Source: Candidatus Eiseniibacteriota bacterium (lineage in GTDB: Bacteria > Eisenbacteria > RBG-16-71-46 > CAIMUX01 > VGJL01). Taken from it: a stretch of 64,000 bases of DNA. The first letter of the stretch is position 1; every line of letters starts with the position of its first letter. The DNA lies in contig JBHGAY010000001.1 of NCBI GenBank assembly GCA_041946735.1, forward strand, positions 224,001 through 288,000. The letters run 5' to 3'. Below are positions 3 to 23,474 of this stretch, one piece after another. The position numbers and the translations under genes are program-made. The notes below the pieces were generated by a model that saw only the letters and a list, made by a program, of their open reading frames with translations, ran no database searches and had not been told where the DNA came from.

Positions 3-1019
3 CGGATCGATCAGAGCGAGGGACGCGCCGGAGACATCCTCGCGATCGCGGGAGTCGAGGGGATCCAGATCGGCGAGACGCTCACGAGCCTCGAGACCCC
101 GCGCCCGCTCCCGCCCCTCAGCATCGACGAGCCGACGATCGGAATGATCTTCACGATCAACACCTCGCCGTTCGCCGGGCGCGAAGGGACCTACGTGACG
201 TCGCGCCATCTGCGGGAGCGGCTGCAAAAGGAGCTTCTGACGAACGTCTCCATTCGAGTCGAGGAGGCGGGCGGCCCGGAGAGCTTCCAGGTGATGGGGC
301 GAGGGGAGCTGCAGCTCGCGATCCTGATCGAGATGATGCGGCGTGAGGGATACGAGCTGGCGGTCGGGAAGCCCGAGGTGCTCACGCGGACGGCGCCGGA
401 CGGCACGCTCGAGGAGCCGCAGGAGCTGCTGGTCGTCGACGTGCCGGATGCCTTCCTCGGCGTCGTCATGGAAATCGTGGGGACCCGGAAGGCGAAGATG
501 ACGAAGATGGTCAATCATGGCTCCGGCCGCGTGCGGCTGGAGTTCCACGTCCCCTCACGTGGACTGATCGGCCTGCGCGGCACCCTCCTCACCGAGACGC
601 GCGGCACGATCATCCTCAACTCCCTCTTCCTCGGCTACGTGGAGTGGCAGGGCGAGATCCCGATGCGGGTGACCGGCTCGCTCGTCGCGGACCGAGCCGG
701 GCGCGCGACGTCCTACGCGATCTTCAATCTGCAGGAACGCGGCGAGATCTTCGTGACACCTGGGACCGACGTGTACGAAGGGATGATCGTCGGCGAGAAC
801 GCGCGGCCCCGGGACATCAACGTGAACATCGTGAAGGAGAAGAGGCTGACGAACATGCGCGCTTCGACGGCGGAGGAGGGGATCCGCCTCGTGCCTCCGC
901 GGATCCTGAACCTCGAGCAGGCGATCGAGTTCGTCAACGAGGACGAGCTGGTCGAGGTCACGCCGAAATCGATCCGCTTGCGCAAGAAAGTCCTCGCGGC
1001 GAACCAGCGCTGGGTCTGA
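3..1019 (+). CDS. typA: Translational GTPase TypA/BipA, C-terminal part (5' end lies outside the window)
   Basis: Contains [40 protein letters not shown](R)LTNMRAS and [15 protein letters not shown], all characteristic of BipA C-terminal domains. The frame is open from the window start. Confidence 0.96.
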
Positions 1020-5723: not shown

Positions 5724-6439
5724 ATGAAGCATCAGAAGCATCGAACGAGGATGATCGCTCTCGCCGCGCTCTTCTCGACGACGACGCTGATCGCCGCGGC
5801 CGGGGCGATGACCTACGAGATCACCGTCGAGAACGCCGTCACGCCGGGCGGGATGGAGATGGGTCAGCCGTTCTCACGCCCGGTCGCAGTCGTCCACGGC
5901 GCCGGCTACTCGCAGTGGGCGCCGGGCGGCCAGGCCTCCCCCGGGCTCGAGCTCGTCGCGCGCGAAGGCAACCCGACCGTGCTCGCGATGGAAGCGGAGA
6001 ACAACGCCGACGTCTACGACGTCGTCGTGGGCGAAGTGGACCCTTCTTCGACTCGGTCTCCTTCTCCGTCGAGGGAGACCCTGGAGATCTGTTCTCGATC
6101 GCGTGGATGCTGGGGCGCACGAACGACCTCTTCGCCGGTCTCCACGACGTTGCCCTTCCCGCGCAGGGGGTGGACGTCCAGGACGCCGACGTCTGGGACT
6201 CGGGGACCGAGGTGAACACCGGCATGATCGAAGACCTGGGCTTCTACGGGCACCCGAACACGGGACCTGACGAGGACGCGCCGATCACGTCGATCGCGAG
6301 TTACACCGTCTACGACGACCCGACCTATGGCGAGCTGACCTGGAACTTCCCGCCGGGCGGGCGCGTCACGATCCGCTCCGTTCCACCGACTGCCACGAGC
6401 GAGACGACTTGGGGCGCGGTGAAGTCGCTCTTCCGTTGA
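5724..6439 (+). pseudogene. Secreted spondin-N-domain protein with TTWGAVKSLFR tail, split by a 1-nt frameshift near 6035-6042 (pseudogene or sequencing error)
   Basis: The frame from 5724 gives a signal peptide plus 'YEITVEN...QPFSRPVAVVH...ASPGLELVAREGN'. Another frame continues 'SIAWMLGRTNDLFAGL...VWDSGTEVN'. Both are halves of the spondin_N pattern. Confidence 0.8.
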
Positions 6440-6526
6440 TCCTTTCGCTCATCTGAATCATCAAGCAGAAGAGGGGTGGACCGGCTCGAGGACGGAACGG
6501 GCCAGGAGATCCATCCGAGCAAGAGC

Positions 6527-6562
6527 GCCGGCCGGTCCAGGAGCGACTCTGGACCGGCCGGC
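6527..6562. terminator. Strong hairpin between convergent genes (probable bidirectional terminator)
   Basis: 14-bp perfect stem GCCGGCCGGTCCAG / CTGGACCGGCCGGC with an 8-nt loop. Confidence 0.6.
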
Positions 6563-6599
6563 TTATCTGTCGCGAATCTTCGCCCAAACGTCGAAACGT

Positions 6600-7403
6600 C
6601 TAGCGGAACAGGCCCTTCACGGCGCCCCAGGTCGTCTCCTCGACCGCCACCGGTCCACCGGCGCCGACATCGTAAGACTCCCACTGAGCGGTGTTGGCAT
6701 TGTACAGATAGACGAGGCCGTCGAGGCCGACGCCGAACGAGAAGTCCGTGTTGAAGTCGCCGGGAGAACCGATCGGCACGTTGCACTGGCCGATCCGGTT
6801 GCCCGCGAGATCCCACTCGGACACGACGCCGTTGGAGCAGGTGAGGATCCTGCCGTCGGCCGTCGTTTCCATCTGGACGTTGTCCGGATAGTCCGTCTCG
6901 CCTCCGCCCATGCCGATGAGCGGCACGTTACCGATCGGCGAGCCGTTGGCGGCGTCGAAACGGTAGAGTGTCGGCGCCGCGAACACGTAGAGCTCCGTGT
7001 CGTCACCGTTGAGGCTGGCGGCGGACTGGCAGTCCGGATCGGAAATCCCGTAGAGGAGCGTGGCGACGCCGCTCTGCGAGATCGAGTAGACGTTGCCGCA
7101 GAACTCCTTGGCGTAGAGCTGCCCGCCGTTGCTGGCGTAGAGCGAACGGAAGTCGATCTGCGGGTAGTAGGTGTTCAGGAGCGTCCCGTCGACGCTGTAC
7201 TGGCTCAGCGGGCAACCGGGGTTGCCACCCGGCGCGAGCCAGACGTAGGTCCCGTCCATTTCGGCCGTCATCGTCGTCCAGCCCTGCGAGTTGTCAGGGT
7301 AGGTATAAACGAGAACGCCCGTGTCGCTCAGCGTCCCCGAAGCGAGCGCCGATCCAGTGGCGGCGAAGGCCAGGACGAAGAGAGCTACTACCAATTTCTT
7401 CAT
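6600..7403 (-). CDS. Secreted protein (propeller-like) with C-terminal VEETTWGAVKGLFR motif, 267 aa
   Basis: Classic signal peptide MKKLVVALFVLAFAATGSALA; GGAGGG RBS. Confidence 0.85.
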   Translation of the reverse strand: MKKLVVALFVLAFAATGSALASGTLSDTGVLVYTYPDNSQGWTTMTAEMDGTYVWLAPGGNPGCPLSQYSVDGTLLNTYYPQIDFRSLYASNGGQLYAKEFCGNVYSISQSGVATLLYGISDPDCQSAASLNGDDTELYVFAAPTLYRFDAANGSPIGNVPLIGMGGGETDYPDNVQMETTADGRILTCSNGVVSEWDLAGNRIGQCNVPIGSPGDFNTDFSFGVGLDGLVYLYNANTAQWESYDVGAGGPVAVEETTWGAVKGLFR

Positions 7404-7463
7404 AGAATCCACCCTCCCGTATTTGATGAGCCCGGATAGAACGGCCGCTTTACCGGCGCTTGA

Positions 7464-7492
7464 ATGTTACGCTGGGCGACAGGATCCGTCAA
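7464..7492 (-). promoter_or_regulatory. Sigma70-type promoter for the 7403 gene
   Basis: TTGACG-N17-TAACAT on the minus strand, about 60 nt upstream of the ATG. Confidence 0.55.
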
Positions 7493-7677
7493 CGAATGCG
7501 GGGCGCACGCAGTGTTCTGCGAATGGATTTCGATCCAGCAAACTCCCCGAGACCCGCCCCATCTCCGGTTTCATGGAAATCATCGCCCTTTTCGTAGGAC
7601 AGACAGGAAGGGGCACCACCGGTGGCGGTCGGCGGTCGGCGACCTGAGGCCGGCAGGCGCCGGTTGGGAATCGGCCC

Positions 7678-8244
7678 TTACGTCTCCCGGCTCCGCCGAA
7701 ACGCCCACGACAGGAGGATGGGGTCCCGAGCGGCCTCGGTGCACAGCATCTCCGGCAAGGGCCGGATTCCGATGCGTCCGAGGTCGAGACGGTCCGCGTC
7801 CCAGCAGGTCTGGATCGTCACGTCCGCTTGCAGCTGGCCGTGGCTATGGTCCCGGCAGGCGAAGAGGAGGAGGTCGAGATCCTCCTTCTCGAGCTGGAAG
7901 GCGTTGCCGGCGAGCGAGAGCGCGAAAGCCGCGGCCCGCAGGCCGTGGTCGCGGTCCTCCGTATCCGAGACCCGGCGGGCGTCGTGGATCAGCGCGAACA
8001 GCTCCACGACCGGCTGCTTCGCCCCGGTCAGCGGCGCGAGCCGGATCCCGTTCTCCAGCACCCGCTTCCAATGCGGCCTCCCGTGCACCCCTTCCAGATC
8101 GAGCAGGAACTGGCGTTCGATCGTGGAGAGAAGCAGCGGGTAGCGAATGGTCCCGGGCTGCAGACCGCTGGCCGGGGGGGGCCCGGCCGGCTCTTGACGT
8201 CCGGGCCCGTCGTGAGGCACTCCCGTTTCTCCCGTTTCTTCCAT
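7678..8244 (-). CDS. Small HD-domain phosphohydrolase, 188 aa
   Basis: HGRPHWKRV, LIHDARR, DHG and CWDADRLDLGR motifs. ATG overlaps the upstream stop (TGATG). Confidence 0.85.
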   Translation of the reverse strand: MEETGETGVPHDGPGRQEPAGPPPASGLQPGTIRYPLLLSTIERQFLLDLEGVHGRPHWKRVLENGIRLAPLTGAKQPVVELFALIHDARRVSDTEDRDHGLRAAAFALSLAGNAFQLEKEDLDLLLFACRDHSHGQLQADVTIQTCWDADRLDLGRIGIRPLPEMLCTEAARDPILLSWAFRRSRET

Positions 8245-9680
8245 CACCGGGAACGTATCAGACGGACGGTCGCTCCACCCTTCCCTTCGGTCGTCACGAG
8301 ATACACTCCGGCCGGGACTTCGCGGCCCTGCTCGTCGCGGCCATCCCAGACGACCGTTCCGTCCGGCGCTTCGAGCATCCGGACCCGCCGTCCGGACAGG
8401 TCGACGATCGCAGCCCTCCGTCCCGTCGACAGCCGGATCTCCGTGGCCCGTTGGAACGGATTCGGCACGGCGGCGATCGTAGGGACCGCTGTCGCCGTGA
8501 CGCCCGGCTCCGGGACGGCATCCGGACGGAGCCATGCGATCCGCTTCTTGTAGATCACGCCCTGGAAGCTCGGAAGGAAGCCGACGCACCAGACGTCCGC
8601 CGAGTCCGATACGAGGGGCTCCCAGTCGATCGCCGACATCTCGGCCCCCGTATCCTGATCGAGGTTCCAGCTGTTGCCGCCGTCGAGCGACTCCCAGATT
8701 CCGCCTCCGGCGTTGTTGAAGCGCGTCCCGCCGGCCGCGAAGCCGTGGAAGAGATCGAAGACCTGGACGACGCGGATCGGATAGTTCGTCTGCAGCACCC
8801 TGCCGCTCCAGGTCGCTCCGCCGTCGGAGGAGCGGTGGACCCACCCGCTGACCGGCGCGGAGATCTGTCCCCCGCCCGTCCATCCCAGAATCCCGTCGGC
8901 GAACGAAACGCCGCCGTCGAAGACGTTGTCGACCGAGTGCCGGGAAGACCAGGTAAGGCCGCCGTCGGTGGAGTTGCAGAGCTGGATCCCGGTCACCCAG
9001 GCGCGGAGGGCCGCATCGAACGTGAAGTTGCCTGCGAACCAGCCGCCCGTCGGGTCCGCCTGGATCTTCGTCCAGTCGGCCGCTGTTCGCCCTCCGTTCG
9101 TCGTGACGTAGACATATCCCTGATAGCCGTAAGCGATCCCGTGCATGGAGTCGGCGAAACGAATGTTCAAGAGCCAGTTGGCCGGGTCGAGGACGACGTC
9201 CGGCGACCAGGTCGCGCCACCGTCGTCGGTCCAGCGGAGGATTCCGGCCCCGCTCTGGTTCTGGAATCCCGCGACGACCGCCGTTTGGGCGGAGAAGGCA
9301 TGCACGCCGTACCAGTAGTACGGGAAGCCGACGTTCATCGCCGTCGTCCAGCTCGCGCCCCCGTTGGTCGTGTGGTACACCGCGCCGAGTTCGGCCGACG
9401 CGAAGCCGTTCAAGGGATCGGCAAAGGAAACTCCGGTCAAGACGTTGGAGACGGTTTGCTGCAGGACCCATCCGGTCCGGTCGCCGGTCGGAGCTTCGAC
9501 CGGCTGTTGCACGAAGTCCGGACCTCCCGAGACGGGGATCCTCTGCAGAAGAGCCTCCCCGGCACGAAGGTCGCGGCGCTCGGGGCTGATCGCATCAGCC
9601 TGCGATAGGAGCGGCGAGAGCAGGAGCGACAACAGAATAGAGGAGGAAAGAGCGAGGAGACAGAAGCGTGGAGATCGCAT
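8244..9680 (-). CDS. Secreted YCF48/BNR (Asp-box) repeat beta-propeller protein with FlgD-Ig/T9SS-like tail
   Basis: Signal peptide; repeated 'T.DGG.TW' Asp boxes; tail 'PNPFQRATEI...DLSGRRVR...WDGRDEQGREVPAGVYLV'. Confidence 0.88.
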   Translation of the reverse strand: MRSPRFCLLALSSSILLSLLLSPLLSQADAISPERRDLRAGEALLQRIPVSGGPDFVQQPVEAPTGDRTGWVLQQTVSNVLTGVSFADPLNGFASAELGAVYHTTNGGASWTTAMNVGFPYYWYGVHAFSAQTAVVAGFQNQSGAGILRWTDDGGATWSPDVVLDPANWLLNIRFADSMHGIAYGYQGYVYVTTNGGRTAADWTKIQADPTGGWFAGNFTFDAALRAWVTGIQLCNSTDGGLTWSSRHSVDNVFDGGVSFADGILGWTGGGQISAPVSGWVHRSSDGGATWSGRVLQTNYPIRVVQVFDLFHGFAAGGTRFNNAGGGIWESLDGGNSWNLDQDTGAEMSAIDWEPLVSDSADVWCVGFLPSFQGVIYKKRIAWLRPDAVPEPGVTATAVPTIAAVPNPFQRATEIRLSTGRRAAIVDLSGRRVRMLEAPDGTVVWDGRDEQGREVPAGVYLVTTEGKGGATVRLIRSR

Positions 9681-9851
9681 GCTGCACCTCCGGGATTGTC
9701 CGTATTCGGTTGCGGGGCTCGCGCTGGCGGGCCTCCTGAAGCACGCGCAGAAGGATACGGCAGCGGCATGGACCTGTCCATCCACGCTGCGGGCCGCGCT
9801 ACCGCCGGCGACGCAGGCGCGGAGAACCGGGCCAGGGTGGACCGGTCTCCG

Positions 9852-10046
9852 TCAGAAGAAAAGAGACGGCGAGCTCGGGCAGGCGCGAAGCATGAAAAGC
9901 GTTGCGGCGGCGGCCGCGCCAAGGACGAGGAGCAGCAGGCCCACGAGCGCGAACGCAGAGATCCGCGGCCGGGAGACGCGAGACAGGACGAACGGCACCC
10001 GGTCGCGAACCCCGGCCGGGGACTCGCGGCGGAGCTCAGCGCCCAT
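9852..10046 (-). CDS. Small single-pass membrane protein, 64 aa (last gene of the EPS operon)
   Basis: Hydrophobic stretch AFALVGLLLLVLGAAAAATLFML; start overlaps the stop of the upstream small ORF by 11 nt. Confidence 0.5.
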   Translation of the reverse strand: MGAELRRESPAGVRDRVPFVLSRVSRPRISAFALVGLLLLVLGAAAAATLFMLRACPSSPSLFF

Positions 10047-10269
10047 CGCGGTCTCCGGCCGGCGCTCCGTCCGTCCCGGTCGCCGCCTGCCGCCGATCCG
10101 GAACGTAACGACGGAAGAAGACGATCCCGTTCAGCTCCTGCTTCGGGAAGTTGCGGTTCGGCCGCCGGCGGTCGCGCAACTTGTACGCCGCGTACGAGCC
10201 AACGGCGAGGACGATCGAAGCGATCGTCGCAACCAGGATCGCCATCGAGAAAAAGCCCATCGCGTTCAT
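10036..10269 (-). CDS. Small single-pass membrane protein, 77 aa
   Basis: GGAGG RBS before MNAMGFFSMAILVATIASIVLAVGSYAAYKLRDRRRP; TM helix followed by a basic cytoplasmic tail. Confidence 0.7.
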   Translation of the reverse strand: MNAMGFFSMAILVATIASIVLAVGSYAAYKLRDRRRPNRNFPKQELNGIVFFRRYVPDRRQAATGTDGAPAGDRDGR

Positions 10270-10327
10270 CGTCGTCCTCCGGGGCGACGCTCCCGCGCGC
10301 CGCCGGTGCGGGTCCCCCAAGCGAGCT

Positions 10328-11635
10328 TCAGATCCGCCCCCGGCGCTCGAGCTTCCCCCATCCCATCTCGACAGAAAGGGTCTCCTCGACGAGCGCGCCG
10401 ACGCGGCACACGTCGAGGCAGAGCGTGAAGAAGAGTCGGTAGGGGATCGCGTAGGGAACGAGGCGCAGATCCTCCTCCTCGGCGACGACGCAGAAGAGGC
10501 CGGCGACGAGATCGAGGACCGTGAGCTGCAACCACCAGAGCAGCAGCAGGCCACCCGACTGGTAGGCGCTCGCCATGTAGAGCAGCCAGACCTGAGCCAT
10601 GAGGTTGACGAGAGGCCACAGGAGGCCCTCGAAGAGCAGGTGGAGAATCGAAAGCGAAAGCAGCGCGTTGTCGCATCGGATCGCGGGGCGCACCCGCTTC
10701 TTCACCGCCTGCAGCAGGCCGCGCGACCAGCGGTAGCGCTGCTGGAACAGGTCCCGCATTCCCTCCGGGGCTTCCGTGAAAGCGATCGCGTTCGGCTCGT
10801 AGCGCACCCGCCAGCCCCGCTCGAGGATCTTGAGCGTCAGGTCGGCGTCCTCCGCATACGTATCCTCGGAGTATCCGCCCGCCTCGCGCAGCACCCGCCG
10901 CCGGAACATTCCGAAAGGCCCGGGAATGATCGCCACCGAGCGGAAGAACGCTTGCGCGCGCCGCGACATGTTCAGCCCCTCGACGTACTCGAGCGCCTGC
11001 AGCCGCGTCAGGAGGTTCCGCCGGTTCGCAACCTTCACGTTTCCCGCGACGGCGCCGACCTTCGGGTCGCCGAAATGACGCACCGCGGCTCTCAGGCTTC
11101 CTGGCTCGATCCTGGAGTCCCCATCGACGCAGAGGATCAGGTCCTCGTGCGCGGCGGAGATGCCGAGATTCAATGCGCTCGCCTTCCCGCCGTTCGCTTT
11201 GTGCAGCACCCGCACGCGGGTGCCGGAATAGCGTCCCTCCATCGCGCTCGCGCGCAGGAACGTGTCGTCGGTCGAGCCGTCGTCGATCACGAGAATCTCG
11301 AAGCTCGGATAGTCCAGCTCGAGGAGCGATCGGATCGATGCCTGGATCGTCACCGACTCGTTGAATGCGGGCACGAGGATGCTCACCGGCGGCAGCGCCT
11401 GGCACTCCGGCTCCGCCCCCCCCTCGATCCCGTCGAGGTAGGCGAACCACATGAGGATGAAGTGCCGGAGGATCAACACGCAGAGGAAACCGAAGAAGAA
11501 CGCGCCCGCGCCGCGGGTCCAAGCGGGAAGCGCCGGCAGCGGCTGGCGAAAGAGGATGCCGGCCAGAGCGAAACCGAGCGCGACGAAGAAGCCGGCGAGG
11601 AGGACGAGGAGCAGGAAGTAGCGCACTCTCCTCAC
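10328..11635 (-). CDS. Processive GT2 glycosyltransferase (PgaC/IcaA-like polysaccharide synthase)
   Basis: ILVPAFNE, DDGSTD, KANGGKASALN, VDGD (DxD), AED and QQRYRW (QxxRW); 2 N-terminal and about 3 C-terminal TM helices; no PilZ domain. Confidence 0.92.
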   Translation of the reverse strand: MRRVRYFLLLVLLAGFFVALGFALAGILFRQPLPALPAWTRGAGAFFFGFLCVLILRHFILMWFAYLDGIEGGAEPECQALPPVSILVPAFNESVTIQASIRSLLELDYPSFEILVIDDGSTDDTFLRASAMEGRYSGTRVRVLHKANGGKASALNLGISAAHEDLILCVDGDSRIEPGSLRAAVRHFGDPKVGAVAGNVKVANRRNLLTRLQALEYVEGLNMSRRAQAFFRSVAIIPGPFGMFRRRVLREAGGYSEDTYAEDADLTLKILERGWRVRYEPNAIAFTEAPEGMRDLFQQRYRWSRGLLQAVKKRVRPAIRCDNALLSLSILHLLFEGLLWPLVNLMAQVWLLYMASAYQSGGLLLLWWLQLTVLDLVAGLFCVVAEEEDLRLVPYAIPYRLFFTLCLDVCRVGALVEETLSVEMGWGKLERRGRI

Positions 11636-11638
11636 CGG

Positions 11639-13042
11639 CTAATGTCTCCACTCCAGCGCGAGCCGCACGCTCCGCGATTCGTAGCGGGAGATCCGGCGGG
11701 TCGCCGAGATCTCGCCGGTCGCCACCGCGTCGAGCGAAGAGGCGATCGGAGCGCGGAAAGCGAGCTTGCCACCGCCTGCCTCGCCGGACCCCGTCCTGTT
11801 TCCGACGGCGCCGAACCATCCCGACGCGTCGAGGGAGAAGAAGGCCGGGAGCGGAGGCGAGAGATGGATCCAGGCCGCGGCGGTCCATTCGTCCCTGGGC
11901 GCGTAGTAGAGAGAGGAGCCGCGCGAGTAGCCGGTCCACTGGGCGGCGAGAGCGGCGCGCAGAGGCCCCGCAAGCTTCGCGTCGAGCGCAACGTCGCTCG
12001 AGCGGAAGGCGTTTTCGTCGTCCCAGCTTCCCGCGCGCAGGCGCATGTAGAGGCCGGCGCGGGGCGAGAAGGAGAGGTAGCCGGAGAGGCTGCCGTCGAC
12101 CCCTCGCAGGCCCGCCTCCTCCGCCGCAACGCTCTTCAGCTCGTAGCCGCGATCCGCGAAGGCGGCGGCGGCCTGGAGCGAGGCTCGCGCGAGCGGGCGA
12201 GATCGGAAGACAGCGCGAAGGCGCGGGCAGGCGCCGTCCGCCGAGCCGGCGCCCGGAATCGAGACGCCCGCCTCGAACGCGATGGAAGACCGGGGTCCTG
12301 TCGCGATCTCGGTCCCGGCCTGCAGCAACTGCCTCTCCGTCTCGCTCGCGCTCTCTCCCGCGCTCTCTCCCGGCCCAGGCGCGCCGGCTCCATCACGCGT
12401 GAGGCGTTCGCTTCCCGCCGTGATCGTCCACGCGGTGGCCGGCCCCGTGTCGAGCCGCCCGTGGATCGCGAAGGCGCGAGCGCTCACTTCTCCGGAGTCC
12501 TCGAAGAAGTCGACGCTCGCGCGCACGGCCGGATCGCATTCGCGGGCGAGCGACCGTTCGAGAGAGCGCAGATCCTCGTCCTCCGGGTCGAGGCGGCGCA
12601 GGCGACGGACCGACTCGAGCGCCTCGCCCGACCGTCCCGCCCAGCGCAACGCGTTCGTTCGCGCGCGCAGCACCGCCCGGTCCGCGGGCGACTGCCGGAG
12701 CAGATCCTCGTAGAGGGGGATCGCGGCGTCGGGATCCCCTGACCATGCGAGGGCGTTGGCGAGATCGAGGCGCGTGGCGCGGTCTTCTGGATGGCGCACG
12801 AGCCGATTGCGGAACACGGGGATCGCGATCTCCTCGTTGCCCGCCCAGTGTTCGGCGCGCGCGGCGGCCAGGAGGCTGTCCTCAGGGGAACCGACGGCGT
12901 GCGACGGCTGTGCTCCGCGCGCCGGAGAAGCAAGAAGAAGCGAGAGAGCGGCGAGCGCCGCAGCTACGGTGGCATGACGGGTGCGGCCGCGCGCCGGGCG
13001 GCCCGTGACGCGAGCCGGCCGCGCCACGGCGCCCTGCCTCAT
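11639..13042 (-). CDS. TPR-containing outer-membrane beta-barrel exporter (PgaA/BcsC-like architecture), 467 aa
   Basis: Signal peptide; TPRs ('RLDLANALAWSGDPDAAIPLYEDLL', 'ALRWAGRSGEAL'); amphipathic beta-strand C-half ending 'VRLALEWRH'. ATGA overlap with the upstream gene. Confidence 0.72.
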   Translation of the reverse strand: MRQGAVARPARVTGRPARGRTRHATVAAALAALSLLLASPARGAQPSHAVGSPEDSLLAAARAEHWAGNEEIAIPVFRNRLVRHPEDRATRLDLANALAWSGDPDAAIPLYEDLLRQSPADRAVLRARTNALRWAGRSGEALESVRRLRRLDPEDEDLRSLERSLARECDPAVRASVDFFEDSGEVSARAFAIHGRLDTGPATAWTITAGSERLTRDGAGAPGPGESAGESASETERQLLQAGTEIATGPRSSIAFEAGVSIPGAGSADGACPRLRAVFRSRPLARASLQAAAAFADRGYELKSVAAEEAGLRGVDGSLSGYLSFSPRAGLYMRLRAGSWDDENAFRSSDVALDAKLAGPLRAALAAQWTGYSRGSSLYYAPRDEWTAAAWIHLSPPLPAFFSLDASGWFGAVGNRTGSGEAGGGKLAFRAPIASSLDAVATGEISATRRISRYESRSVRLALEWRH

Positions 13043-14703
13043 GGCGCGACCGCCAGGCGGCGTGTCCCATACGCGGCGAAGCCCGGATACCGGAAGAGGT
13101 CGAATTCCGGCTCCCGGGCGCGCCGCATCACCTCGTCGGGATCGGCGAACGGCACCCCATCGATCGGCTCGACGACGTCGTAGGAGCAGCGGATGTGCGG
13201 CGGCTCCCCGTCCTGCGGCCGCGGCCATTCACGACGCAGCCGGGCGATGAAGCCGAGCGTCCCCTCGATGGTCTCCGCATGCAGCACGACGAGCGCCTCG
13301 CCTGGACAAGGGAAGGTCAGCAGGTCGTCCGGGCGGCTCAAGCACTCGAGATCCGCCGGGATCGAGGCTGGCGTGTCGGACGACGGATCCCACAGGAGCC
13401 GGACCACGCCGAGGCTCCGGGCGAAGGCCCGGGCGTCTTCGCACGCGCTCTGCAAGTGCGTGCGGAACTCTTCCGGCGGCAGCGCTCGGACGCGGGCGAG
13501 CGACAGGAGATCTTCGACGTCGGCCGCCGGCGGAGCGGCCGGCGCGACGAAGAGGCGGCTTGCGTTGCGCACCTTCTCGATCACTTCGCGCAGCTCGAAG
13601 GGCTTCGAGATGAAGTCGTTGCCCCCGAGTGACAGTCCTCGGACGCGTTCGTTGCGATCCTGAATCCCGGAGACGAAGAGGATCGGCTGGTGGAAGCCCG
13701 AGCCGCGGAGGGCGCGGCAGACGTCGAAGCCGCTGAGCTTCGGAAGCTGGACGTCCAGCAGGATCACGTCCGGGGCTTCGCGGACCGTGCGGGTCAGCGC
13801 CTCCACTCCGTCCTCGGCCATCAGCAGGTCGAACTCGCTGCGCAACGCCTTGCGCAGGAGCGAGCGGATGAAGGGGTCGTCGTCGGCGAGCAGCACGCGC
13901 TTGCGCGGGTGCGGCACGGCCGGCGGCCCGGCCGGCCCGCCGCTGGAACGCGGGGCGGAGACTTGCGACGCGCTGGCGCTCGCGCGAGATGTCGAAGCGT
14001 CCCTCTCGCCATCCGCGGTGACGCGCGTCTCGACCAGCCCGGCTCCCGGCACGATCTGGAACGGGATCTTTCGCATCCGGTCCGACGGCTGGCGGAGCTT
14101 GTGGATGAAGAGTCGCTTCGAGGACTCGAGACTCTCGACCTCGTCCTGCAGCTCGAAGATGCCCTGGCAGATGTCGGAGAAGACCCGGTACAGGGACGGA
14201 TGGCCTTGCGTCGCGCCGCGATCGTTGAGGAACAGGGGGGTCCATCCCCATTCGGCCAGCGTCTCCGTGAGATAGCGGAGGTCGTAGCGGAGCCGTCCCT
14301 CCTCGGTGCTGCCTCCGAAGAGGGGATGGATCGGATCGAAGACGATCCGGCGATACGCCGCTTCGGCGCGAAGCTCGGCGAGAGGTTCGAGGAAGCGCTT
14401 CCACCCGTAACGCATCAGCCGGCTTGTCACGTCCTGGTCGTACTCGAGCAGGCAGAGGTCGCCCCGCTCGACGGCCGGGTAGGGATCGAGCGCCAGGCTG
14501 GCTGCCTGCGCGAGGAGGTCGGCCGGGCGCTCGATCGTCATCAGGATCGCCGGCTCCTTCGAGCCTCCTCCGAGCGCGTACTGCAGGCCGAGCAAGGTCT
14601 TGCCGGTCCCCGCCTCGCCGAAGACCAGGTATGGCTTGCCCCGGAAGAACCCTCCGATGTGATCGTCCAGCAGACCGATTCCCGTGCGAAACGTCCCGTC
14701 CAT
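13039..14703 (-). CDS. KaiC/RAD55-like ATPase - receiver - degenerate GGDEF fusion, 554 aa
   Basis: TGIGLLD, GEAGTGKT (Walker A), RIVFDP and HKLR; receiver ADDD/ILLDVQLP/VSG/SKPF; C-terminal RPDD-x5-CPGEA. Confidence 0.88.
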   Translation of the reverse strand: MDGTFRTGIGLLDDHIGGFFRGKPYLVFGEAGTGKTLLGLQYALGGGSKEPAILMTIERPADLLAQAASLALDPYPAVERGDLCLLEYDQDVTSRLMRYGWKRFLEPLAELRAEAAYRRIVFDPIHPLFGGSTEEGRLRYDLRYLTETLAEWGWTPLFLNDRGATQGHPSLYRVFSDICQGIFELQDEVESLESSKRLFIHKLRQPSDRMRKIPFQIVPGAGLVETRVTADGERDASTSRASASASQVSAPRSSGGPAGPPAVPHPRKRVLLADDDPFIRSLLRKALRSEFDLLMAEDGVEALTRTVREAPDVILLDVQLPKLSGFDVCRALRGSGFHQPILFVSGIQDRNERVRGLSLGGNDFISKPFELREVIEKVRNASRLFVAPAAPPAADVEDLLSLARVRALPPEEFRTHLQSACEDARAFARSLGVVRLLWDPSSDTPASIPADLECLSRPDDLLTFPCPGEALVVLHAETIEGTLGFIARLRREWPRPQDGEPPHIRCSYDVVEPIDGVPFADPDEVMRRAREPEFDLFRYPGFAAYGTRRLAVAP

Positions 14704-14976
14704 CGCCCTGCTCAGCCTCCCTGTCGACTTGCCGTTCCACGGTCCGGAGATACACCGCGTCATCTCCCTATCGGACGACGCGGCTGTTCCCTCCAGCATT
14801 CGGCGAGTTCCTGGAAGCGCCCGATTGGCGCGGGAAAGGGTCGCTCCGGTCATTAGCCAGCGCGCCATCAGGCATCACGATTGATCGCTCGGCGCTCCTG
14901 CGGGGCCGGTGCGATGATCGTTGCTCCGGAACGACTGTGCCTGGGTCGCAACCGATTGGCCGCATCGAGGTGAACC

Positions 14977-17679
14977 ATGACTCGCTGGATGCCTGCCGCC
15001 GGCCGCGGCCGCCTGGGAGCAGTCTCGCTCGCCATCGCGGCCACCTTGGTATGTGGGATCGAGGGAGTGGTTGCGCGCGCCCCGATCCGGCAATCCTTCT
15101 TCAACGCCTATCCGTCCGCCGTCGGGAGCCGCCTCGACAACCTGCCGAGCATTCAAGGGCACTGCGGCGTCTGTCATTACCAGTTCACGGGGGCCGGCCC
15201 GCGCAATCCGTATGGACAGAGGATCGAAGGGCTGCTCGGCAGCTACCCGAACAACGACGCCGGTCGCCAGCGCCTCATGCACGACATCGAGAACGAGGAT
15301 GCCGACGCGGACGGCTACGCCCAGATCACGGAGATCACCGACCTGATCCACTACGGCAACACTCCGACGTTCCCGGGCTTGACCCCCTCGAACGTAGGCC
15401 AGGTGAGCGGCGTGAACGCACAGGACATTCTGGCCTTCCTCGTCCCGGCAGTGGGCGGAGACGTTCAGGCGCCTACCGTGAATGTGATCTCCCCCAACGG
15501 AGGAGAAAGCTGGCAGGGAGGGACGCAGCACACGATCGCGTGGACCGCCACGGACGACGTCGGAGTCATTTCGATCGACGTCTTCTATCGCGCGACCGAC
15601 GCCGAGCCGTGGACGCCGCTCGCGCTGTCGATCGCGAATGCGGGAACCCTTCCATGGTTCGTGCACAACACGCCTGGATCACGCGCGCTCGTTCTCATCA
15701 AGGCGCGCGACGCCGCCGGCAACGTTGGGCAGGACCTGAGCAACGCCTTCTTCACGATCACCCGCGAGACGGGGTCGACCGCCCCGACGACGCTGCGTGA
15801 CTTCGAGATGCCAGGGACGCACCCGCTCCAGGCCACGGGGCTGCAGGACCGCTCCGGGTGCTCAGGCTGCCACGGAGGGTATGATCCTGCCGTCGAACCG
15901 GAGTTCGTGCAGAAGGGGAGCATGATGGCGCAGGCGATGCGCGATCCGCTCTACTTCGCGACGCTGGTCGTCGCCGAGCAGGATGCGTCGTCCTCCGGCG
16001 ACCTCTGCCTACGCTGCCACACTCCGCTCGGTTGGCTGTCCGGACGAAGCAATCCCACCGACGGCAGCCAACTTACCGCGTTCGATCGCGACGGCGTGAC
16101 CTGCGACTTCTGTCACCGGGGCGTCGACCCGAGTTACGTCTCGGGGCAGTCTCCCTCGGTCGATCTGGAGATTCTCGCTGGTCTCGATGCGGTCCCACCC
16201 GGCTACTCGAACGGAATGTACGTGATCGATCCGCAAGCGCGCCGGCGCGGGCCGTTCGCGGACGTCGTCGCCCCGCATCCATTCCTCGTCTCGCCGTTCC
16301 ACGTCTCCAGCAACTTCTGCGGGACCTGCCACGACGTCTCCAATCCGGTCTTCGAGAAGGTGGCGCAGGGGGATTACGCCCCGGGGCCGCTCGACCAGCC
16401 ACCGGAGACGATCCTCTCCTCGGTGACGCTGCCGGTCGAGCGAACCTACAGCGAGTGGCTCCACAGCGAATTCCCGGGCGGCGTCTACGCTCCGGAGTTC
16501 GCGGGAAACAAGCCGGGCGGATATGTGTCGACCTGCCAGGACTGCCACATGCGCGACGTGAACGGCAAGGGGGCGAACGATCCCAACGCGCCGATCCGTC
16601 CGAACCTCCCGCTCCACGATCAGACGGGAGGCAACTCCTGGGTGCCGACGATCCTCGACGAGATCTATCCGAACGAGGTCGATCCGGCGGCGCAGGCGGC
16701 AGCTTCCGCGCGGGCCGTCTCGATGCTCCAGCTCGCTGCCCTGCTCGATCTCACCGTGACCCAGACGCAGCAAGGGCTTCAGGCCGATTGCCTCGTCACG
16801 AACCGGGCCGGCCACAAGCTGCCGACGGGATACCCCGAGGGACGCAGGATGTGGATCCAGATCCGTGCGTACGACGGGTTCGGTCAATTGGTGTACCAGT
16901 CGGGGGCCTACGATCCCGCGACCGGCGTGTTGATCCAGGACGCGGACGCCGTCGTCTACGAGGCCAAGCCGGGGCTTTCCGGATCCTGGGCAGGGGCGCT
17001 CGGGCTCCCAGCCGGACCTTCCTTCCACTTCGCGCTGAACGACTCGATCTACAAGGACAACCGGATCCCGCCGCGCGGCTTCACGAACGCAGGCTACGCG
17101 ACGTTCGGCGGCGAGCCGGTCGATCCGCACCACGAAGGGCCGGGGCCTCGCTACGCGGACGGGCAGAACTTCGACGTCGCCAGCTACCTTCTGCCCGCCT
17201 CCGCGCGCAAGATCGTCGCGACTCTCTTCTACCAGACGGCGTCGAAGGAGTACGTCGAGTTCCTGCGGGACGAGAACGTGACCGACGACAAGGGCCTGCT
17301 GATGTACAGCCTGTGGCAGAACAATGGAAGGTGCGCTCCGGTGATGATGGTCCGCGACAGCGTCCTCTACGTTCCCGGGGCGGCCGAGGACGGATCGATC
17401 GCCGGGCGGCGTCTCGAGATCGAGGCGTTCCCGAGTCCGTTTACCGACGGGCTGTCGATCCGTATGAACATTCCGCGTCCGCGCGAGCTCAAGGCGGAGA
17501 TCTTCGATCTTCAGGGGCGCCTGGTCTTCCGCCGCGCCTGGCCGCCCATCACCGGAGCGCTCTCGCTCCACTGGGACGGACGGGATGGCGCTGGACGCCC
17601 GGTCGCGCCCGGGATCTATTGGCTCCGCGTGGAATCGGGCGGGCAGGCGCAGACGAAGCGATTGGTCCGCATCTCCTGA
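14977..17679 (+). CDS. Secreted multiheme c-type cytochrome (6 CxxCH) with Ig-like domain and FlgD-Ig/T9SS-like tail
   Basis: CGVCH, CSGCH, CLRCH, CDFCH, CGTCH and CQDCH; AGHKLPTGYPEGRRMW; VISPNGGESW Ig-like domain; tail 'FDLQGRLV...WDGRDGAGRPVAPGIYW'. Confidence 0.9.
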   Translation: MTRWMPAAGRGRLGAVSLAIAATLVCGIEGVVARAPIRQSFFNAYPSAVGSRLDNLPSIQGHCGVCHYQFTGAGPRNPYGQRIEGLLGSYPNNDAGRQRLMHDIENEDADADGYAQITEITDLIHYGNTPTFPGLTPSNVGQVSGVNAQDILAFLVPAVGGDVQAPTVNVISPNGGESWQGGTQHTIAWTATDDVGVISIDVFYRATDAEPWTPLALSIANAGTLPWFVHNTPGSRALVLIKARDAAGNVGQDLSNAFFTITRETGSTAPTTLRDFEMPGTHPLQATGLQDRSGCSGCHGGYDPAVEPEFVQKGSMMAQAMRDPLYFATLVVAEQDASSSGDLCLRCHTPLGWLSGRSNPTDGSQLTAFDRDGVTCDFCHRGVDPSYVSGQSPSVDLEILAGLDAVPPGYSNGMYVIDPQARRRGPFADVVAPHPFLVSPFHVSSNFCGTCHDVSNPVFEKVAQGDYAPGPLDQPPETILSSVTLPVERTYSEWLHSEFPGGVYAPEFAGNKPGGYVSTCQDCHMRDVNGKGANDPNAPIRPNLPLHDQTGGNSWVPTILDEIYPNEVDPAAQAAASARAVSMLQLAALLDLTVTQTQQGLQADCLVTNRAGHKLPTGYPEGRRMWIQIRAYDGFGQLVYQSGAYDPATGVLIQDADAVVYEAKPGLSGSWAGALGLPAGPSFHFALNDSIYKDNRIPPRGFTNAGYATFGGEPVDPHHEGPGPRYADGQNFDVASYLLPASARKIVATLFYQTASKEYVEFLRDENVTDDKGLLMYSLWQNNGRCAPVMMVRDSVLYVPGAAEDGSIAGRRLEIEAFPSPFTDGLSIRMNIPRPRELKAEIFDLQGRLVFRRAWPPITGALSLHWDGRDGAGRPVAPGIYWLRVESGGQAQTKRLVRIS

Positions 17680-17967: not shown

Positions 17968-19629
17968 ATGCGCCGCCGTTCTTTCCCGAGTTTCCCAGCC
18001 GCGCTCCGCGGTCCGTGCCACAGCGTGGCGACCCGTCGCTCCGCAGCTCCGGCGATCCTCTTCCCGCTGGCTCTCGCTCTCGCCCTTGTCACGCAGGGTT
18101 GCGTCGCGTGGCGCGCGCCAAGGAAGCCGATCGAGCAGGTGATGACCGACCGGCATCCCGAAGTGGTCCGGGTCAGCGTGCGAGAGGCGGATGGAGACGT
18201 GAGCCGCCGCCTCGTCATGACTCCGTGGATCGAATCGGACAGCCTGCTCGGCTACGAGGCCGATACCCTGGCCGCGCGATCGAATGTCTATCGGGTGATG
18301 CCTCCGAAGACTCGCGTCGCGATTCCCCTGTCGTCGATCCAGCAGACCGAGATCCGCAAGCCGGCCGTCGGCGCCGGGACGATCATCGTCGGGGCGGTCG
18401 CCGCGGCGCTTCTGGTCGCGGCGCTCACCGCCGACTTCGACACCGGTGGCGACGGTGGCACGCTGAGCGATAGCGGCAACATGGGCAGCTGCCCCGTCGT
18501 ATCGAGCTGGGATGGCTCCCGCTGGAGACTCGACTCGGCGACCTTCGGCGGGGCGATCGCAGAATGCCTCCGGCGCACCGACGTCGATCTGCTCGAGTTC
18601 GCTTCCGCCTCTCCGGACGGGCGGGTACACCTCGCGATGGAGGATCCGCTCGACGAGACGGAGCACGTCGATCGCGTCACGCTCCTCGTGGTCGAGCACG
18701 ATCGCGGCGTTTCGATCGCGCCCGACGCCGAAGGCCGGCTCTGCACGCTCGGTCCGCTCATCGCGCCGCTCTCGGCCGCCGACTTTGCGGGAAACGACGC
18801 GCTCGACCGGGTCGCGGCGCTCGACGACTGGAGCTGGGAATCGGTGCCGGCAATCCGCGACACCTCGGATGCGCAGACACTGCGGGACGGCCTCGTGCTC
18901 CGGTTCCCGTGCCCTTCGGGCGCCAGTCAGGGGAAGCTCGTCGTGGACGGGCGGAACAGCTCCTGGGCGAACTACCTGATGTACGTCTTCGTCGCGGCTC
19001 ACGGAAGCGAAACCGGAGCATGGTACGAGGCGCTCGCCGCCGATCCGGAGAGGGCGCGGCGGGCGATCCCCTTCCTCTTCCGGGATGCCTTCCTGTCGGT
19101 CGAACTCCTCACCGATCAAGGTTGGCGTCCGCAGGGAACGCTGTACGAGGCGGGCCCGGAGGTGCGCAAGCGGCAGGTATGCCGCCTCGATCTCCGTGAT
19201 GCGGCGGGCGAGGAGACGATCGAGGTGCGGGTTCGGTCCCTCCCTTCCTTCTGGGTGATCGACCGGGTGGCGATCGACACGAGTGAGGATGGAGTGATCG
19301 ACGTCCGCGAGATCGAGGCGGAGTCGGCCGCCGACCAGGACGGCAAGGACATCCGGCGATCGATCCGGCGGATCGATGCCGAGGAGTACCGGATGGAGCA
19401 GGGCGACCGCGCCGATCTCGTCTTCGATGCCGGCGGCCCGCCGGCCGAGGGGCGAGCGCGCAGCTTCGTCCTGCAGACGAGCGGGTGGTACTGGATCCAC
19501 AGCCGCGACGATGGCAAGCCGGACATCGCCATGCTCTCCCTCCTCGAGCGGGATCCGGCGGCGCTCGGGCGGCTCGCCGTGGCGCGCGCCAACCGGGCGA
19601 CCGCGCTTCTCTCGCGGGCCCGCCCGTAA
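17968..19629 (+). CDS. Hypothetical lipoprotein with internal TM and 'SCP...WDG' domain, 553 aa
   Basis: GGAGGG RBS; lipobox-like ALVTQGC; GSCPVVSSWDG resembles the SCP-x4-WDG module of ASPIC/UnbV-associated proteins. Confidence 0.75.
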   Translation: MRRRSFPSFPAALRGPCHSVATRRSAAPAILFPLALALALVTQGCVAWRAPRKPIEQVMTDRHPEVVRVSVREADGDVSRRLVMTPWIESDSLLGYEADTLAARSNVYRVMPPKTRVAIPLSSIQQTEIRKPAVGAGTIIVGAVAAALLVAALTADFDTGGDGGTLSDSGNMGSCPVVSSWDGSRWRLDSATFGGAIAECLRRTDVDLLEFASASPDGRVHLAMEDPLDETEHVDRVTLLVVEHDRGVSIAPDAEGRLCTLGPLIAPLSAADFAGNDALDRVAALDDWSWESVPAIRDTSDAQTLRDGLVLRFPCPSGASQGKLVVDGRNSSWANYLMYVFVAAHGSETGAWYEALAADPERARRAIPFLFRDAFLSVELLTDQGWRPQGTLYEAGPEVRKRQVCRLDLRDAAGEETIEVRVRSLPSFWVIDRVAIDTSEDGVIDVREIEAESAADQDGKDIRRSIRRIDAEEYRMEQGDRADLVFDAGGPPAEGRARSFVLQTSGWYWIHSRDDGKPDIAMLSLLERDPAALGRLAVARANRATALLSRARP

Positions 19630-19642
19630 GGCAGGGAGGATC

Positions 19643-22126: not shown

Positions 22127-23474
22127 CGACGCGGCGCTCCGGCGCGCCCTCCGCGACCGGCTCGAGTTCTGGGGACACGCCCCGTTCGAGGCGAAAGACG
22201 GTGCGGCAGCGCTCGAGCAGTGCGAAAGGCGGGAGTTCGATCTCGTCCTGCTCGATCTGGCGATGCCGGGAATGGGCGGGCAGGAGGTGCTGGAGGAGCT
22301 GAAGCGGCGCGGTTCGGCCGCGGCGGTCGTCATCTTGACCGCCCACGGCACGATCGGCGCCGCGGTCCAGGCACTGAAAGCCGGGGCGGAGGACTTTCTC
22401 TTGAAGCCTGCGGACTTCGACCTGCTCCGCTCCGTCATCGATCGCGCCTTCGAGTCGCGCAACGCGCGCCGCGTGACGCACGCCCTGCGCGAGGATCGTG
22501 CGGGCGAAGCGGCCGGATTCGTCGAGGCGGCCTCCCCTACGATGCGCAAGCTTCTCGAGACGGCCTCGCGCGCCGCTCAGTCCAACGCGACGATCCTCGT
22601 CACGGGCGAGAGCGGGACCGGCAAGCAGGTTCTCTCCGAATACGTGCACCGGCAGAGCGCGCGCGCGAAGGGGCCGTTCGTCTACATCAACTGCGTCGCC
22701 CTCTCGGACGAGCTGATCGAATCCACCCTCTTCGGGCACGAGAAAGGGGCGTTCACCGGGGCCATCGCTCGCAAGGAAGGGCGCCTCGAGGCGGCGGCGG
22801 GAGGTACCGCCTTCCTCGACGAGGTCGGCGACATCAGCCCTCGTCTGCAGGCGAAGCTGCTCCACTTTCTCGAGACGAACGAGTTCGAGCGCGTCGGCGG
22901 AACCCGCACGATCCGCGTCGACTGCCGGATCATCGCAGCCACCAACCGGGATCTCGACGCCGCCGTCCGGGAGGGACGCTTCCGGCAAGACCTCTACTTC
23001 CGCCTGAACGTGATCCGGCTCGACGTGCCTCCGTTGCGCGCGCGCAAGGAAGACGTCCCGATCCTGGCCGAGGCGTTTCTCGCCCGCTTTGCCGGTGAGC
23101 TGCGGCGACCCGGTCTCGCCTTCACGCCTGCCACGATGCGCCTGCTCGCGCAGTATCCGTGGCCGGGCAACGTCCGGCAGCTCCGCAACTCGATCGAACG
23201 CATGGCCGTCCTGGCGACCGGCGCCGCTCTCGATCCCGATCTGCTGCCTCCCGAGCTGTTCACGGTGGAGATCGGAGGGATCGAGCCGAGGACCGAGGGG
23301 CGAGGCGCGCCGGCGGGCGGGGCGCTGCCCTTGCGGGAGGCCATGCAGGACTTCAAACGGGAGTACATCCGGCAGGCTCTCGCTCGCGCGGGGGGGAACC
23401 AGACCCGAGCCGCCGAGGCGCTCGGCCTGCAACGGACCTTCTTGAACCGCTTGATCCGCGAAATGGGGCTGTGA
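22101..23474 (+). CDS. NtrC-family sigma54-dependent response regulator
   Basis: Receiver ILIVDDD/LLDLAMP/LKP; GESGTGK, GHEKGAFTGA, FLDEVG and WPGNVRQL; Fis HTH GNQTRAAEALG. Confidence 0.96.
   Translation: MGTILIVDDDAALRRALRDRLEFWGHAPFEAKDGAAALEQCERREFDLVLLDLAMPGMGGQEVLEELKRRGSAAAVVILTAHGTIGAAVQALKAGAEDFLLKPADFDLLRSVIDRAFESRNARRVTHALREDRAGEAAGFVEAASPTMRKLLETASRAAQSNATILVTGESGTGKQVLSEYVHRQSARAKGPFVYINCVALSDELIESTLFGHEKGAFTGAIARKEGRLEAAAGGTAFLDEVGDISPRLQAKLLHFLETNEFERVGGTRTIRVDCRIIAATNRDLDAAVREGRFRQDLYFRLNVIRLDVPPLRARKEDVPILAEAFLARFAGELRRPGLAFTPATMRLLAQYPWPGNVRQLRNSIERMAVLATGAALDPDLLPPELFTVEIGGIEPRTEGRGAPAGGALPLREAMQDFKREYIRQALARAGGNQTRAAEALGLQRTFLNRLIREMGL

Follow-up and report, generated by a model that had tools for sequence, protein, structure and literature searches.

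A candidate PNAG-related exopolysaccharide cassette with a KaiC-REC-GGDEF-fold regulator in an uncultured Eisenbacteria bacterium

The subject of this analysis is a cassette of exopolysaccharide (EPS) genes on the minus strand of a 64,000-nucleotide (nt) stretch of DNA, called the window below, which has a G+C content of about 67% and belongs to contig C1 in a 4.89-Mb assembly (G000; 94.8% complete) of an uncultured Eisenbacteria bacterium. The cassette encodes a regulator (REG) that combines a KaiC-like ATPase, a receiver (REC) and a degenerate GGDEF-fold domain, an export protein with tetratricopeptide repeats (TPR) and a predicted beta-barrel (TPRBB), a glycosyltransferase of family 2 (GT2) and a small membrane protein (SM1), followed by a short open reading frame (ORF), SM2. 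It is read here, with a probability of roughly 0.65, as a synthase-dependent EPS secretion cluster related to those for poly-N-acetylglucosamine (PNAG), this figure covering the whole reading, including the putative role of REG as a switch of the synthase.

Gene layout and conservation

The genes follow each other closely (Table 1). REG and TPRBB share a 4-nt ATGA overlap, TPRBB and GT2 are 3 nt apart, a gap of 58 nt separates GT2 from SM1, and SM1 and SM2 overlap by 11 nt. An earlier interpretation of the letters of this DNA (the sequence-only reading) had described five tightly packed minus-strand genes, and its coordinates and all four junctions were reproduced. The start of REG is the Met at 14703; a longer ORF reaching 14868 was dismissed, since the homologs all begin at that same Met.

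Table 1 Features of the cassette in the window (aa, amino acids; RBS, ribosome-binding site; CE4, carbohydrate esterase family 4)
Feature	Positions	Strand	Basis
REG, 554-aa regulator (KaiC-like ATPase + REC + degenerate GGDEF)	13039..14703	-	Pfam, structure search
KaiC-like RecA-superfamily ATPase domain of REG	14038..14688	-	PF06745, 104.5 bits vs cut-off 26.6
Receiver (REC) domain of REG	13567..13896	-	PF00072, 84 bits
Degenerate GGDEF-fold domain of REG	13078..13488	-	profile, fold, motif alignment
TPRBB, 467-aa outer-membrane export protein, PgaA-like: signal peptide, short TPR, C-terminal beta-barrel	11639..13042	-	
GT2, 435-aa processive membrane glycosyltransferase, PgaC/IcaA-like, without PilZ	10328..11635	-	
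SM1, 77-aa single-pass membrane protein	10036..10269	-	RBS + orthologs
SM2, 64-aa ORF, 5' remnant (signal-anchor region) of CE4 polysaccharide deacetylase gene	9852..10046	-	alignment to relatives

The conservation of the cassette was followed by searching the proteins of 41 related genomes and then running tblastn on the fetched stretches (10 loci). The order REG-TPRBB-GT2-SM1 is kept in all four other genomes with a close GT2 (G005, G008, G019 and G011; loci L013-L016), at identities to the window proteins of 48-59% for REG, 33-42% for TPRBB, 63-69% for GT2 and 55-65% for SM1; a further comparison of the orthologs gave 64-69% for GT2 and 57-62% for SM1. The flanking genes vary from locus to locus, and the cassette can thus be regarded as a conserved unit. 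Of the 35 genomes of the order, 5 have a close GT2 ortholog, and SM1 is present in 5 of 206 genomes of the phylum, which are exactly those carrying the cassette. REG itself has its best matches, at E 1e-139 or better, in the same cassette-bearing genomes, and at E<=1e-30 matches of the REG family are found in 17 of the 206, all within the order of the window. In a sixth genome (G001, 75% complete), a fragment of REG, 78% identical, lies at the end of a contig. The distribution is patchy and spans three families, and the arrangement is far beyond chance. As for the synteny search that the sequence-only reading had proposed for its gene order, four genes are conserved together and in order, whereas the fifth ORF has no counterpart in the relatives.

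Broader scans gave little beyond this set. When a genome collection was scanned with five KaiC domain sequences, only the four Eisenbacteria metagenome-assembled genomes (MAGs) already found were returned, and a metagenome locus scan with the REG alignment, in which the patterns came from the receiver domain, kept 80 loci that were all generic REC or KaiC, with no cassette among them. The literature search found no paper on Eisenbacteria exopolysaccharides.

The regulator and its relatives

REG has about 18 full-length homologs, among which the sole organism name is Candidatus Eisenbacteria. With an AlphaFold2 model of the whole protein (mean predicted local distance difference test, pLDDT, 83.7), Foldseek retrieved only KaiC structures, the top one at E 2e-17. 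The KaiC domain covers residues ~6-222 according to Pfam and is followed by REC, without the tandem CI-CII arrangement of clock KaiC. Direct translation gives the Walker A motif GEAGTGKT at 14596-14619. In the five operon-linked REG proteins, G29, G32, G34, K35, E58-R59-P60 and D123 are invariant, and the REG family conserves Walker A, the Glu of ERP and the Asp of Walker B. The receiver (residues ~270-379) has the acidic pocket ADDDPF, the phospho-acceptor Asp in ILLDVQL (codon 13753-13755), Ser345 and Lys-Pro-Phe, all checked in translation, and its conserved columns are D274-D276, D317, S345, K367, P368 and F369. The earlier claim that the catalytic motifs of the regulator are apparently intact was borne out in that the Walker A and B and REC residues are present and conserved. 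The ATPase motifs look intact, and hydrolysis of ATP by REG would be expected from them.

For the last 175 residues of REG, Pfam gave no match. A profile built from ten REG C-terminal regions and run against Protein Data Bank (PDB) sequences had its best match with 6d9m_A (E 7.7e-06), followed by GcbC (3.8e-4), WspR (4.3e-4), PelD (0.03) and PleD (0.11). The profile alignment placed the R-P-E-D of the family on the RxxD of the inhibitory site (I-site) and a non-GGDEF sequence at the GGDEF site; in REG itself the I-site is RPDD (13324-13335) and the GG(D/E)EF position reads CPGEA. Modelled alone, the domain reached a pLDDT of 84 and a predicted TM-score (pTM) of 0.77, and all Foldseek matches to this model were GGDEF domains, with E values from 9e-06. 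Exhaustive structural comparison gave Z scores of 13-13.9 for canonical cyclases (5euh_A: Z 13.9, root-mean-square deviation 2.6 Å, 130 residues), against 10.2 for PelD and 8.0 for BcsE. Only ten residues lead from the first strand to the next helix, at the place where cyclases hold the substrate-binding helix.

The motifs were compared in an alignment of 44 C-terminal regions that includes co-aligned canonical REC-GGDEF proteins. The I-site Arg is present in 38 and the Asp in 43 of the 44 regions. GG(D/E)EF occurs only in the co-aligned canonical REC-GGDEF proteins, and the KaiC-REC family shows PSGEI, CPGEA and similar sequences at this position. The loss of both GG(D/E)EF and the substrate-binding segment makes it unlikely that REG is a cyclase, and the retained I-site suggests, by analogy with known receptors, that it binds cyclic di-GMP (c-di-GMP). 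Since five canonical GGDEF matches above the cut-off are present in the genome, this second messenger is probably made in the organism.

With respect to its origin, REG can be compared to the REC-GGDEF regulators of the PleD/WspR type, in which REC is likewise followed by a GGDEF fold with an I-site and which are the best structural matches; one REG homolog is labelled 'PleD family' in the Joint Genome Institute (JGI) annotation. Unlike these proteins, REG has neither GG(D/E)EF nor the substrate-binding segment, and it carries an N-terminal KaiC-like ATPase. Compared with BcsE, the degenerate domain has more the look of a PleD/WspR-type domain that decayed recently. The simplest scheme would be that a PleD/WspR-like regulator lost cyclase activity, kept the ability to bind the product and acquired a KaiC-type ATPase. 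A single KaiC-like ATPase domain joined to a receiver has also been described for fusion proteins of Methanosarcinaceae (PMC5847659); these are archaeal and lack a GGDEF-like domain, and no link to EPS is described in the available part of that work. No paper on a KaiC-REC-GGDEF regulator was found outside the BcsE literature.

The family to which REG belongs is much larger than the cassette. An exhaustive profile search yielded dozens of clusters (50% identity; 500-580 aa) that match most of the REG profile in a single stretch. In a sample of 25 clusters, 23 had KaiC + REC and the other two were shorter and REC-only; three gave weak PelD_GGDEF matches, below the 27-bit cut-off, and one a weak GGDEF_2 match. 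The distant clusters that were looked up carried no specific name. In the sister family, paralogs with the KaiC-REC-degenerate GGDEF layout (L018-L022) miss the REC acidic pocket, reading for example LLACREHDF, and have neighbours that include a symporter-like and a sigma-factor-like gene. A different situation is met in G004, a genome of the same family as the window. Its locus (L017, G004:C1) encodes a 344-aa REC-degenerate GGDEF protein with RPED, an NGTDGP tail and no KaiC domain, and the gene (7788-8822 (-)) lies directly beside a homolog (6236-7627 (-)) of the BNR-repeat gene that is found downstream of the cassette, at 8244-9785, in the window. The genes for TPRBB, GT2 and SM1 are absent there, which suggests that the cassette may have been deleted stepwise in this lineage.

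Synthase, exporter, small proteins and surroundings

The motifs VIDDGSTDD, DGDS, AEDADL and QQRYRW identify GT2 as a membrane processive glycosyltransferase of this family, in line with its Pfam GT2 families, and no PilZ domain was matched in it by Pfam or NCBIfam, just as the sequence-only reading had it. The best NCBIfam family is TIGR03937 PgaC_IcaA (213.6 bits), with NodC next (120.3 bits), and hhalign against E. coli PgaC gave a probability of 99.9% (E 4.5e-35, 32% identity over 260 columns). For TPRBB, a signal peptide and Pfam TPR families were found, together with a weak match to the PgaA family TIGR03939 (E 1.9e-06); hhalign against the N-terminus of E. coli PgaA gave 41% (E 2.8e-4), with a shared LWAG motif. 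In the ESM Atlas, the C-terminal 278 aa (residues 190-467) had PgaA_barrel clusters first (0.96) and by structure TPR+porin and BcsC-C proteins, at TM-scores of 0.84-0.88 over 255-263 residues; this assignment of the barrel depends on the Atlas's own model, with a pTM of 0.64. As modelled, this part of TPRBB looks like barrels of the PgaA/PelB/BcsC type. The TPR plus beta-barrel protein proposed earlier for 11639-13042 is thus recovered, its TPR part by Pfam and its barrel in the predicted model, and the proposed synthase-dependent EPS machine of PgaA/PgaC type agrees with both the PgaC alignment and the barrel clusters. A word-based search for TPRBB homologs gave one strong match, the 99%-identical partial entry P0121, and otherwise three weak matches to generic TPR proteins (E 4e-7 to 5e-6). 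In the Atlas, Gemmatimonadota are the commonest source of proteins structurally close to TPRBB.

In comparison with E. coli PgaABCD, the PgaC-like synthase, the PgaA-like exporter, the CE4 deacetylase (in the relatives) and a small membrane protein whose gene directly follows that of the synthase are shared. There are also clear differences: the exporter has 467 aa instead of the 807 aa of PgaA, the order of functions is REG-A-C-small-B, an extra cytoplasmic KaiC-REC-degenerate GGDEF regulator is present, a PgaD homolog is absent, and the deacetylase of the relatives is anchored by a transmembrane helix and has other flanking domains, while in the window genome it is truncated. PgaB itself combines CE4 with a C-terminal GH153 domain. 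SM1, with one transmembrane helix, has no similarity to PgaD (hhalign with the E. coli protein, 0.3%). Environmental pga-like operons without detectable pgaB and pgaD are known, and for pga-derived operons that lack pgaA and pgaD a novel regulatory mechanism has been suggested (PMC7112194); a regulator of the REG type is not described in the available part of that EPS operon survey. The sequence similarities suggest that the polymer is GlcNAc-based and PNAG-like.

SM1 is preceded by the RBS GGAGGA, 5 nt before its ATG, and has 28 invariant positions among five sequences. Its features are an N-terminal transmembrane helix, the basic stretch YKLR(D/E)RRRPNR, FFxRY and TGTDG near the C-terminus. 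A profile search gave 113 homologs of 57-96 aa at E<=0.001, the closer ones in Eisenbacteria and the distant ones, with the same core motifs, in Gemmatimonadota MAGs; their labels are unnamed, 'hypothetical' or evidently automatic. As the family core SY.AYKLRERRRP ... FF.RY extends to these MAGs (among P0314-P0393), a related cassette may exist in Gemmatimonadota. In the membrane, SM1 is probably associated with the synthase. Prediction of a complex of GT2, REG(1-230) and SM1 scored 0.44 and a control in which GT2 was replaced 0.68, so that the score speaks neither for nor against binding.

Most REG homologs end in (A/S/R)TGTD(G/S/A) after a variable linker, and the sister-family copies end in RRWGT. 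Among the SM1 orthologs, four of five have TGTDG near the end of the cytoplasmic tail, which in the window is encoded at 10036-10090. TGTD within the last 25 aa was counted in 5 of 39,964 genome frames of at least 60 aa, against a rough expectation of ~7, and the motif is therefore not a proteome-wide C-terminal tag. The only other clearly coding frame with a TGTD tail is that of a 141-aa stand-alone CheY-like receiver ending in ATGTDC (G000 contig C56, 106-531 (-)). The motif shared by the tails of REG and SM1 suggests a common docking site or modification. A 1-nt frameshift was considered as the cause of the divergent tail of the window REG, for which the DNA gives no support.

Of the two small single-pass membrane proteins that the sequence-only reading listed, SM1 is real and conserved, whereas SM2 turned out to be a gene remnant. 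With SM2 as query, tblastn found no counterpart ORF at any of the 10 loci, the four syntenic ones included. At the latter, SM1 is followed in all four cases by an intact gene for a protein of 630-686 aa that starts with a signal anchor and contains a CE4 deacetylase domain (matched by PF01522 at E 8e-14 to 9e-16 and best in the PDB by 3rxz, at 1.4e-10). The first ~55 residues of these four deacetylases are 38, 37, 25 and 22% identical to SM2, the conserved parts being RPRI, the transmembrane helix and MLR..P, and BLASTP aligned residues 16-57 of SM2 with residues 14-55 of a deacetylase (E 5e-05, 17/42 identical). The similarity stops after about residue 57, and a stop codon follows. No deacetylase ortholog was found elsewhere in the 94.8%-complete window genome, the sole match being a weak CE4 homolog on contig C3 (E 1.2e-8). 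Since SM2 is a remnant of a gene that is intact in the relatives, the missing deacetylase is a lineage-specific loss and not part of the design of the system. The view that the operon lacks a deacetylase is accordingly wrong as a feature of the system, as four relatives carry CE4 as gene 5. The machine of the window genome may either make an unmodified polymer, or use another esterase, or be impaired.

The junction itself is seen in a single contig, from run X1 (which may be the source sample), that covers 9300-10700 and shows no difference from the window. Two runs of other studies, X2 and X3, contain identical pieces on both sides; none of these bridges 9856-9867, run X7 gave no matching piece, and no alternative joint was seen. 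Among these public runs, none is listed as RNA.

Around the cassette, several other genes deserve mention. Divergently oriented upstream of REG lies the gene for a 900-aa secreted multihaem-cytochrome-like protein (14977-17679 (+)), with cytochrome c7/c3 and MtrC-like matches that are all below cut-off, an Ig-like domain and a C-terminus of the FlgD-Ig / Por-secretion-tail type. The BNR-repeat protein (8244-9785) has a C-terminal domain of the same kind. The only sigma-70-like promoter match in 9400-15200 is at 9752-9780 (-), just upstream of the BNR-repeat gene, which fits with transcription of that gene apart from the cassette. At a distance of 5 kb upstream lie the genes for a histidine kinase (19376-22126 (+); HisKA, HATPase_c) and a sigma-54-dependent response regulator (21792-23474 (+)); nothing connects these to REG, and the cassette itself contains no kinase gene. 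A TypA/BipA GTPase gene directly follows the deacetylase gene in G005 (L013, 9731-11575 (+)), and in the window the TypA/BipA gene (3-1019 (+)) is located ~9 kb from the cassette in the other orientation. This placement may reflect a rearrangement close to where the cassette is truncated.

Control of the synthase and alternative explanations

Activation of synthase-dependent EPS production by c-di-GMP proceeds via PilZ domains (BcsA, Alg44), via PgaCD or via degenerate GGDEF receptors (PelD, BcsE). In the scheme that we favour, a PgaC-like GT2 would polymerise and translocate a chain derived from UDP-GlcNAc, which in the relatives would be partly de-N-acetylated by the anchored CE4 enzyme and would leave the cell through the PgaA-like barrel. 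REG would serve as a post-translational switch of the synthase, acting on a membrane complex of GT2 and SM1. Because the synthase has neither PilZ nor a PgaD partner, the c-di-GMP input could be supplied by the cytoplasmic REG via its I-site, as is done by PelD and BcsE. A second input would be phosphorylation of the receiver by an unlinked kinase, and a third would come from the ATP-dependent, probably oligomeric, KaiC module. SM1 could act as an anchor for REG, like BcsF, or as a stabiliser of the synthase, like PgaD/IcaD.

Functional parallels are PelD and BcsE, both of which are described as receptors with an I-site in a degenerate GGDEF domain that activate synthase-dependent EPS production (PMC8461298, PMC7439463). 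In PelD, the c-di-GMP binding residues are R367, D370 and R402 (PMC8461298). REG and PelD have in common a GGDEF fold that lacks the catalytic motifs and has RxxD, encoded in a synthase-dependent EPS operon of which the synthase has no PilZ domain, and PelD is among both the profile matches (E 0.03) and the fold matches (Z 10.2) of the C-terminal domain. They differ in that PelD is membrane-anchored and has a GAF domain, whereas REG is soluble and has KaiC and REC. BcsE begins with a RecA-like domain whose Walker A motif has diverged severely; next come a receiver that is unlikely to be involved in phosphotransfer and a degenerate GGDEF domain that binds c-di-GMP via RxxD (PMC7439463). This order of domains and the position as leader gene of the operon are the same for REG, and as with BcsF the operon also encodes a small single-pass membrane protein (PMC7439463).

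In view of these likenesses, one may ask whether REG and SM1 are true homologs of BcsE and BcsF, which would mean that a Bcs-type module has been grafted onto a Pga-type machine. We hold this to be very improbable. With 21 REG-family sequences against the single E. coli BcsE sequence, hhalign gave a probability of 0.3%, and for SM1 against BcsF it was 0.4%; no BcsE-named family appeared in Pfam or NCBIfam for REG at E<=0.1. With Z 13-14 for canonical cyclases and 8.0 for BcsE, the degenerate GGDEF domain is structurally nearer to the former, and the Walker A motif and the REC phospho-acceptor are intact in REG but degenerate in BcsE. Furthermore, two genes lie between SM1 and REG, the synthase that goes with REG is PgaC-like and has no PilZ, and the cassette contains no BcsR/Q-like genes. 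Of the ATPase-REC-degenerate GGDEF fusion with BcsE-like layout in the sequence-only reading, the domain order stands; a BcsE/BcsF-like module is not supported by these comparisons, and the architecture of BcsE is shared with REG while kinship is not shown. A different objection concerns the ligand: REG might not sense c-di-GMP at all, with the GGDEF-like domain serving as a protein-interaction or dimerisation module and control being exerted by phosphorylation and ATP only. That conservation in REG is highest in the ATPase and REC motifs, that archaeal KaiC-REC fusions signal without a link to c-di-GMP (PMC5847659), and that the clade of G011 has lost the I-site Arg with the cassette still in place would all suit this explanation. 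It is nevertheless unlikely, in view of the retention of the I-site residues (R 38/44, D 43/44) along with loss of GG(D/E)EF, which is the pattern of an I-site receptor, the alignment of the Arg of the following helix segment (RREW) with a canonical cyclase Arg, the occurrence of PelD among the profile and fold matches, and the weak sub-cut-off PelD_GGDEF matches in distant members.

Two further alternatives concern the product and the state of the machinery. The polymer could be something other than PNAG, for example a chitin-like beta-1,4-GlcNAc chain, a hyaluronan-like polymer, a mixed glycan or another GT2 product. We rate this as a doubtful but serious option: although PgaC_IcaA is far ahead of NodC (213.6 vs 120.3 bits), the GT2 score remains under the PgaC/IcaA equivalog cut-off, and hyaluronan synthase and BcsA are among the PDB matches of GT2; although the nearest barrel feature clusters are PgaA_barrel, the exporter has about half the length of PgaA; and a CE4 deacetylase suits an N-acetylated amino-sugar polymer, even if its build is unusual (transmembrane anchor, ~250-aa N-terminal domain, CE4, ~200-aa C-terminal region). 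To a similar, rather low degree it is conceivable that the cassette of this genome is a decaying, non-functional remnant, in which loss of the deacetylase has disabled maturation or export of the polymer. The deacetylase gene is down to 64 codons, whereas it is intact in 4/4 relatives and has no ortholog elsewhere in the genome; the window REG lacks the TGTD(G) tail that is typical of most homologs; G004 keeps only the gene for the REC-degenerate GGDEF protein beside the same BNR-repeat neighbour, which points to deletions in the lineage; and where pgaB has been lost in some enterobacteria, this has been interpreted to mean that PNAG is no longer produced (PMC7112194). However, REG, TPRBB, GT2 and SM1 are full-length open frames with intact conserved motifs, deacetylation was reported to be unnecessary for transport across the outer membrane in Bordetella (PMC5933820), and a weak CE4 homolog is present on contig C3.

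Returning to a PNAG-related cluster switched by REG as the preferred explanation, a number of observations speak against it and are taken into account in the probability given above. The GT2 score of 213.6 bits is below the PgaC_IcaA equivalog cut-off of 422.3 bits. The I-site Arg is absent in 3/21 family members (the G011 clade) in spite of the presence of the cassette. The C-terminal tail of the window REG is divergent, with AYGTRR and seven more residues (13039-13075). Copies with the KaiC-REC-degenerate GGDEF layout, ~30% identical to REG, occur in 10/15 sister-family genomes without EPS neighbours, and the shorter protein of G004 also lacks EPS neighbours, from which it follows that the family is not exclusively a regulator of EPS. 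The deacetylase is truncated here and this copy of the cassette may be decaying, while the truncation junction is spanned by a single contig and bridged by no independent run. Finally, the organisms are uncultured, and throughout we infer all functional claims, i.e. c-di-GMP binding, ATP hydrolysis, phosphorylation and polymer chemistry.

A more far-reaching proposal, which we put forward as a long shot, is that REG is a three-input gate composed of a competent KaiC ATPase or autokinase, a receiver and an I-site, that it would be the functional counterpart of BcsE and possibly represents an ancestral state, and that the TGTD(G) tail would be a docking peptide or KaiC phospho-substrate that couples REG to the synthase complex.

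What appears to be new, as judged from the encoded proteins, is the combination of Pga-type parts with a receptor of the PelD/BcsE type in a three-domain, apparently still active form, together with a family of small subunits. With the deacetylase lost in this genome, the cassette of a relative is the better object for experiments. If the proposed scheme is true, a PNAG-type synthase would be under the control of a soluble receptor in which a KaiC-type ATPase, apparently active, is combined with a phosphorylatable receiver. Such a regulator would offer a tractable 'live' version of the BcsE architecture, of which all three domains are dead. SM1 represents a widespread, as yet unnamed family of small membrane proteins (113 homologs) in the position that PgaD, IcaD or BcsF would take.

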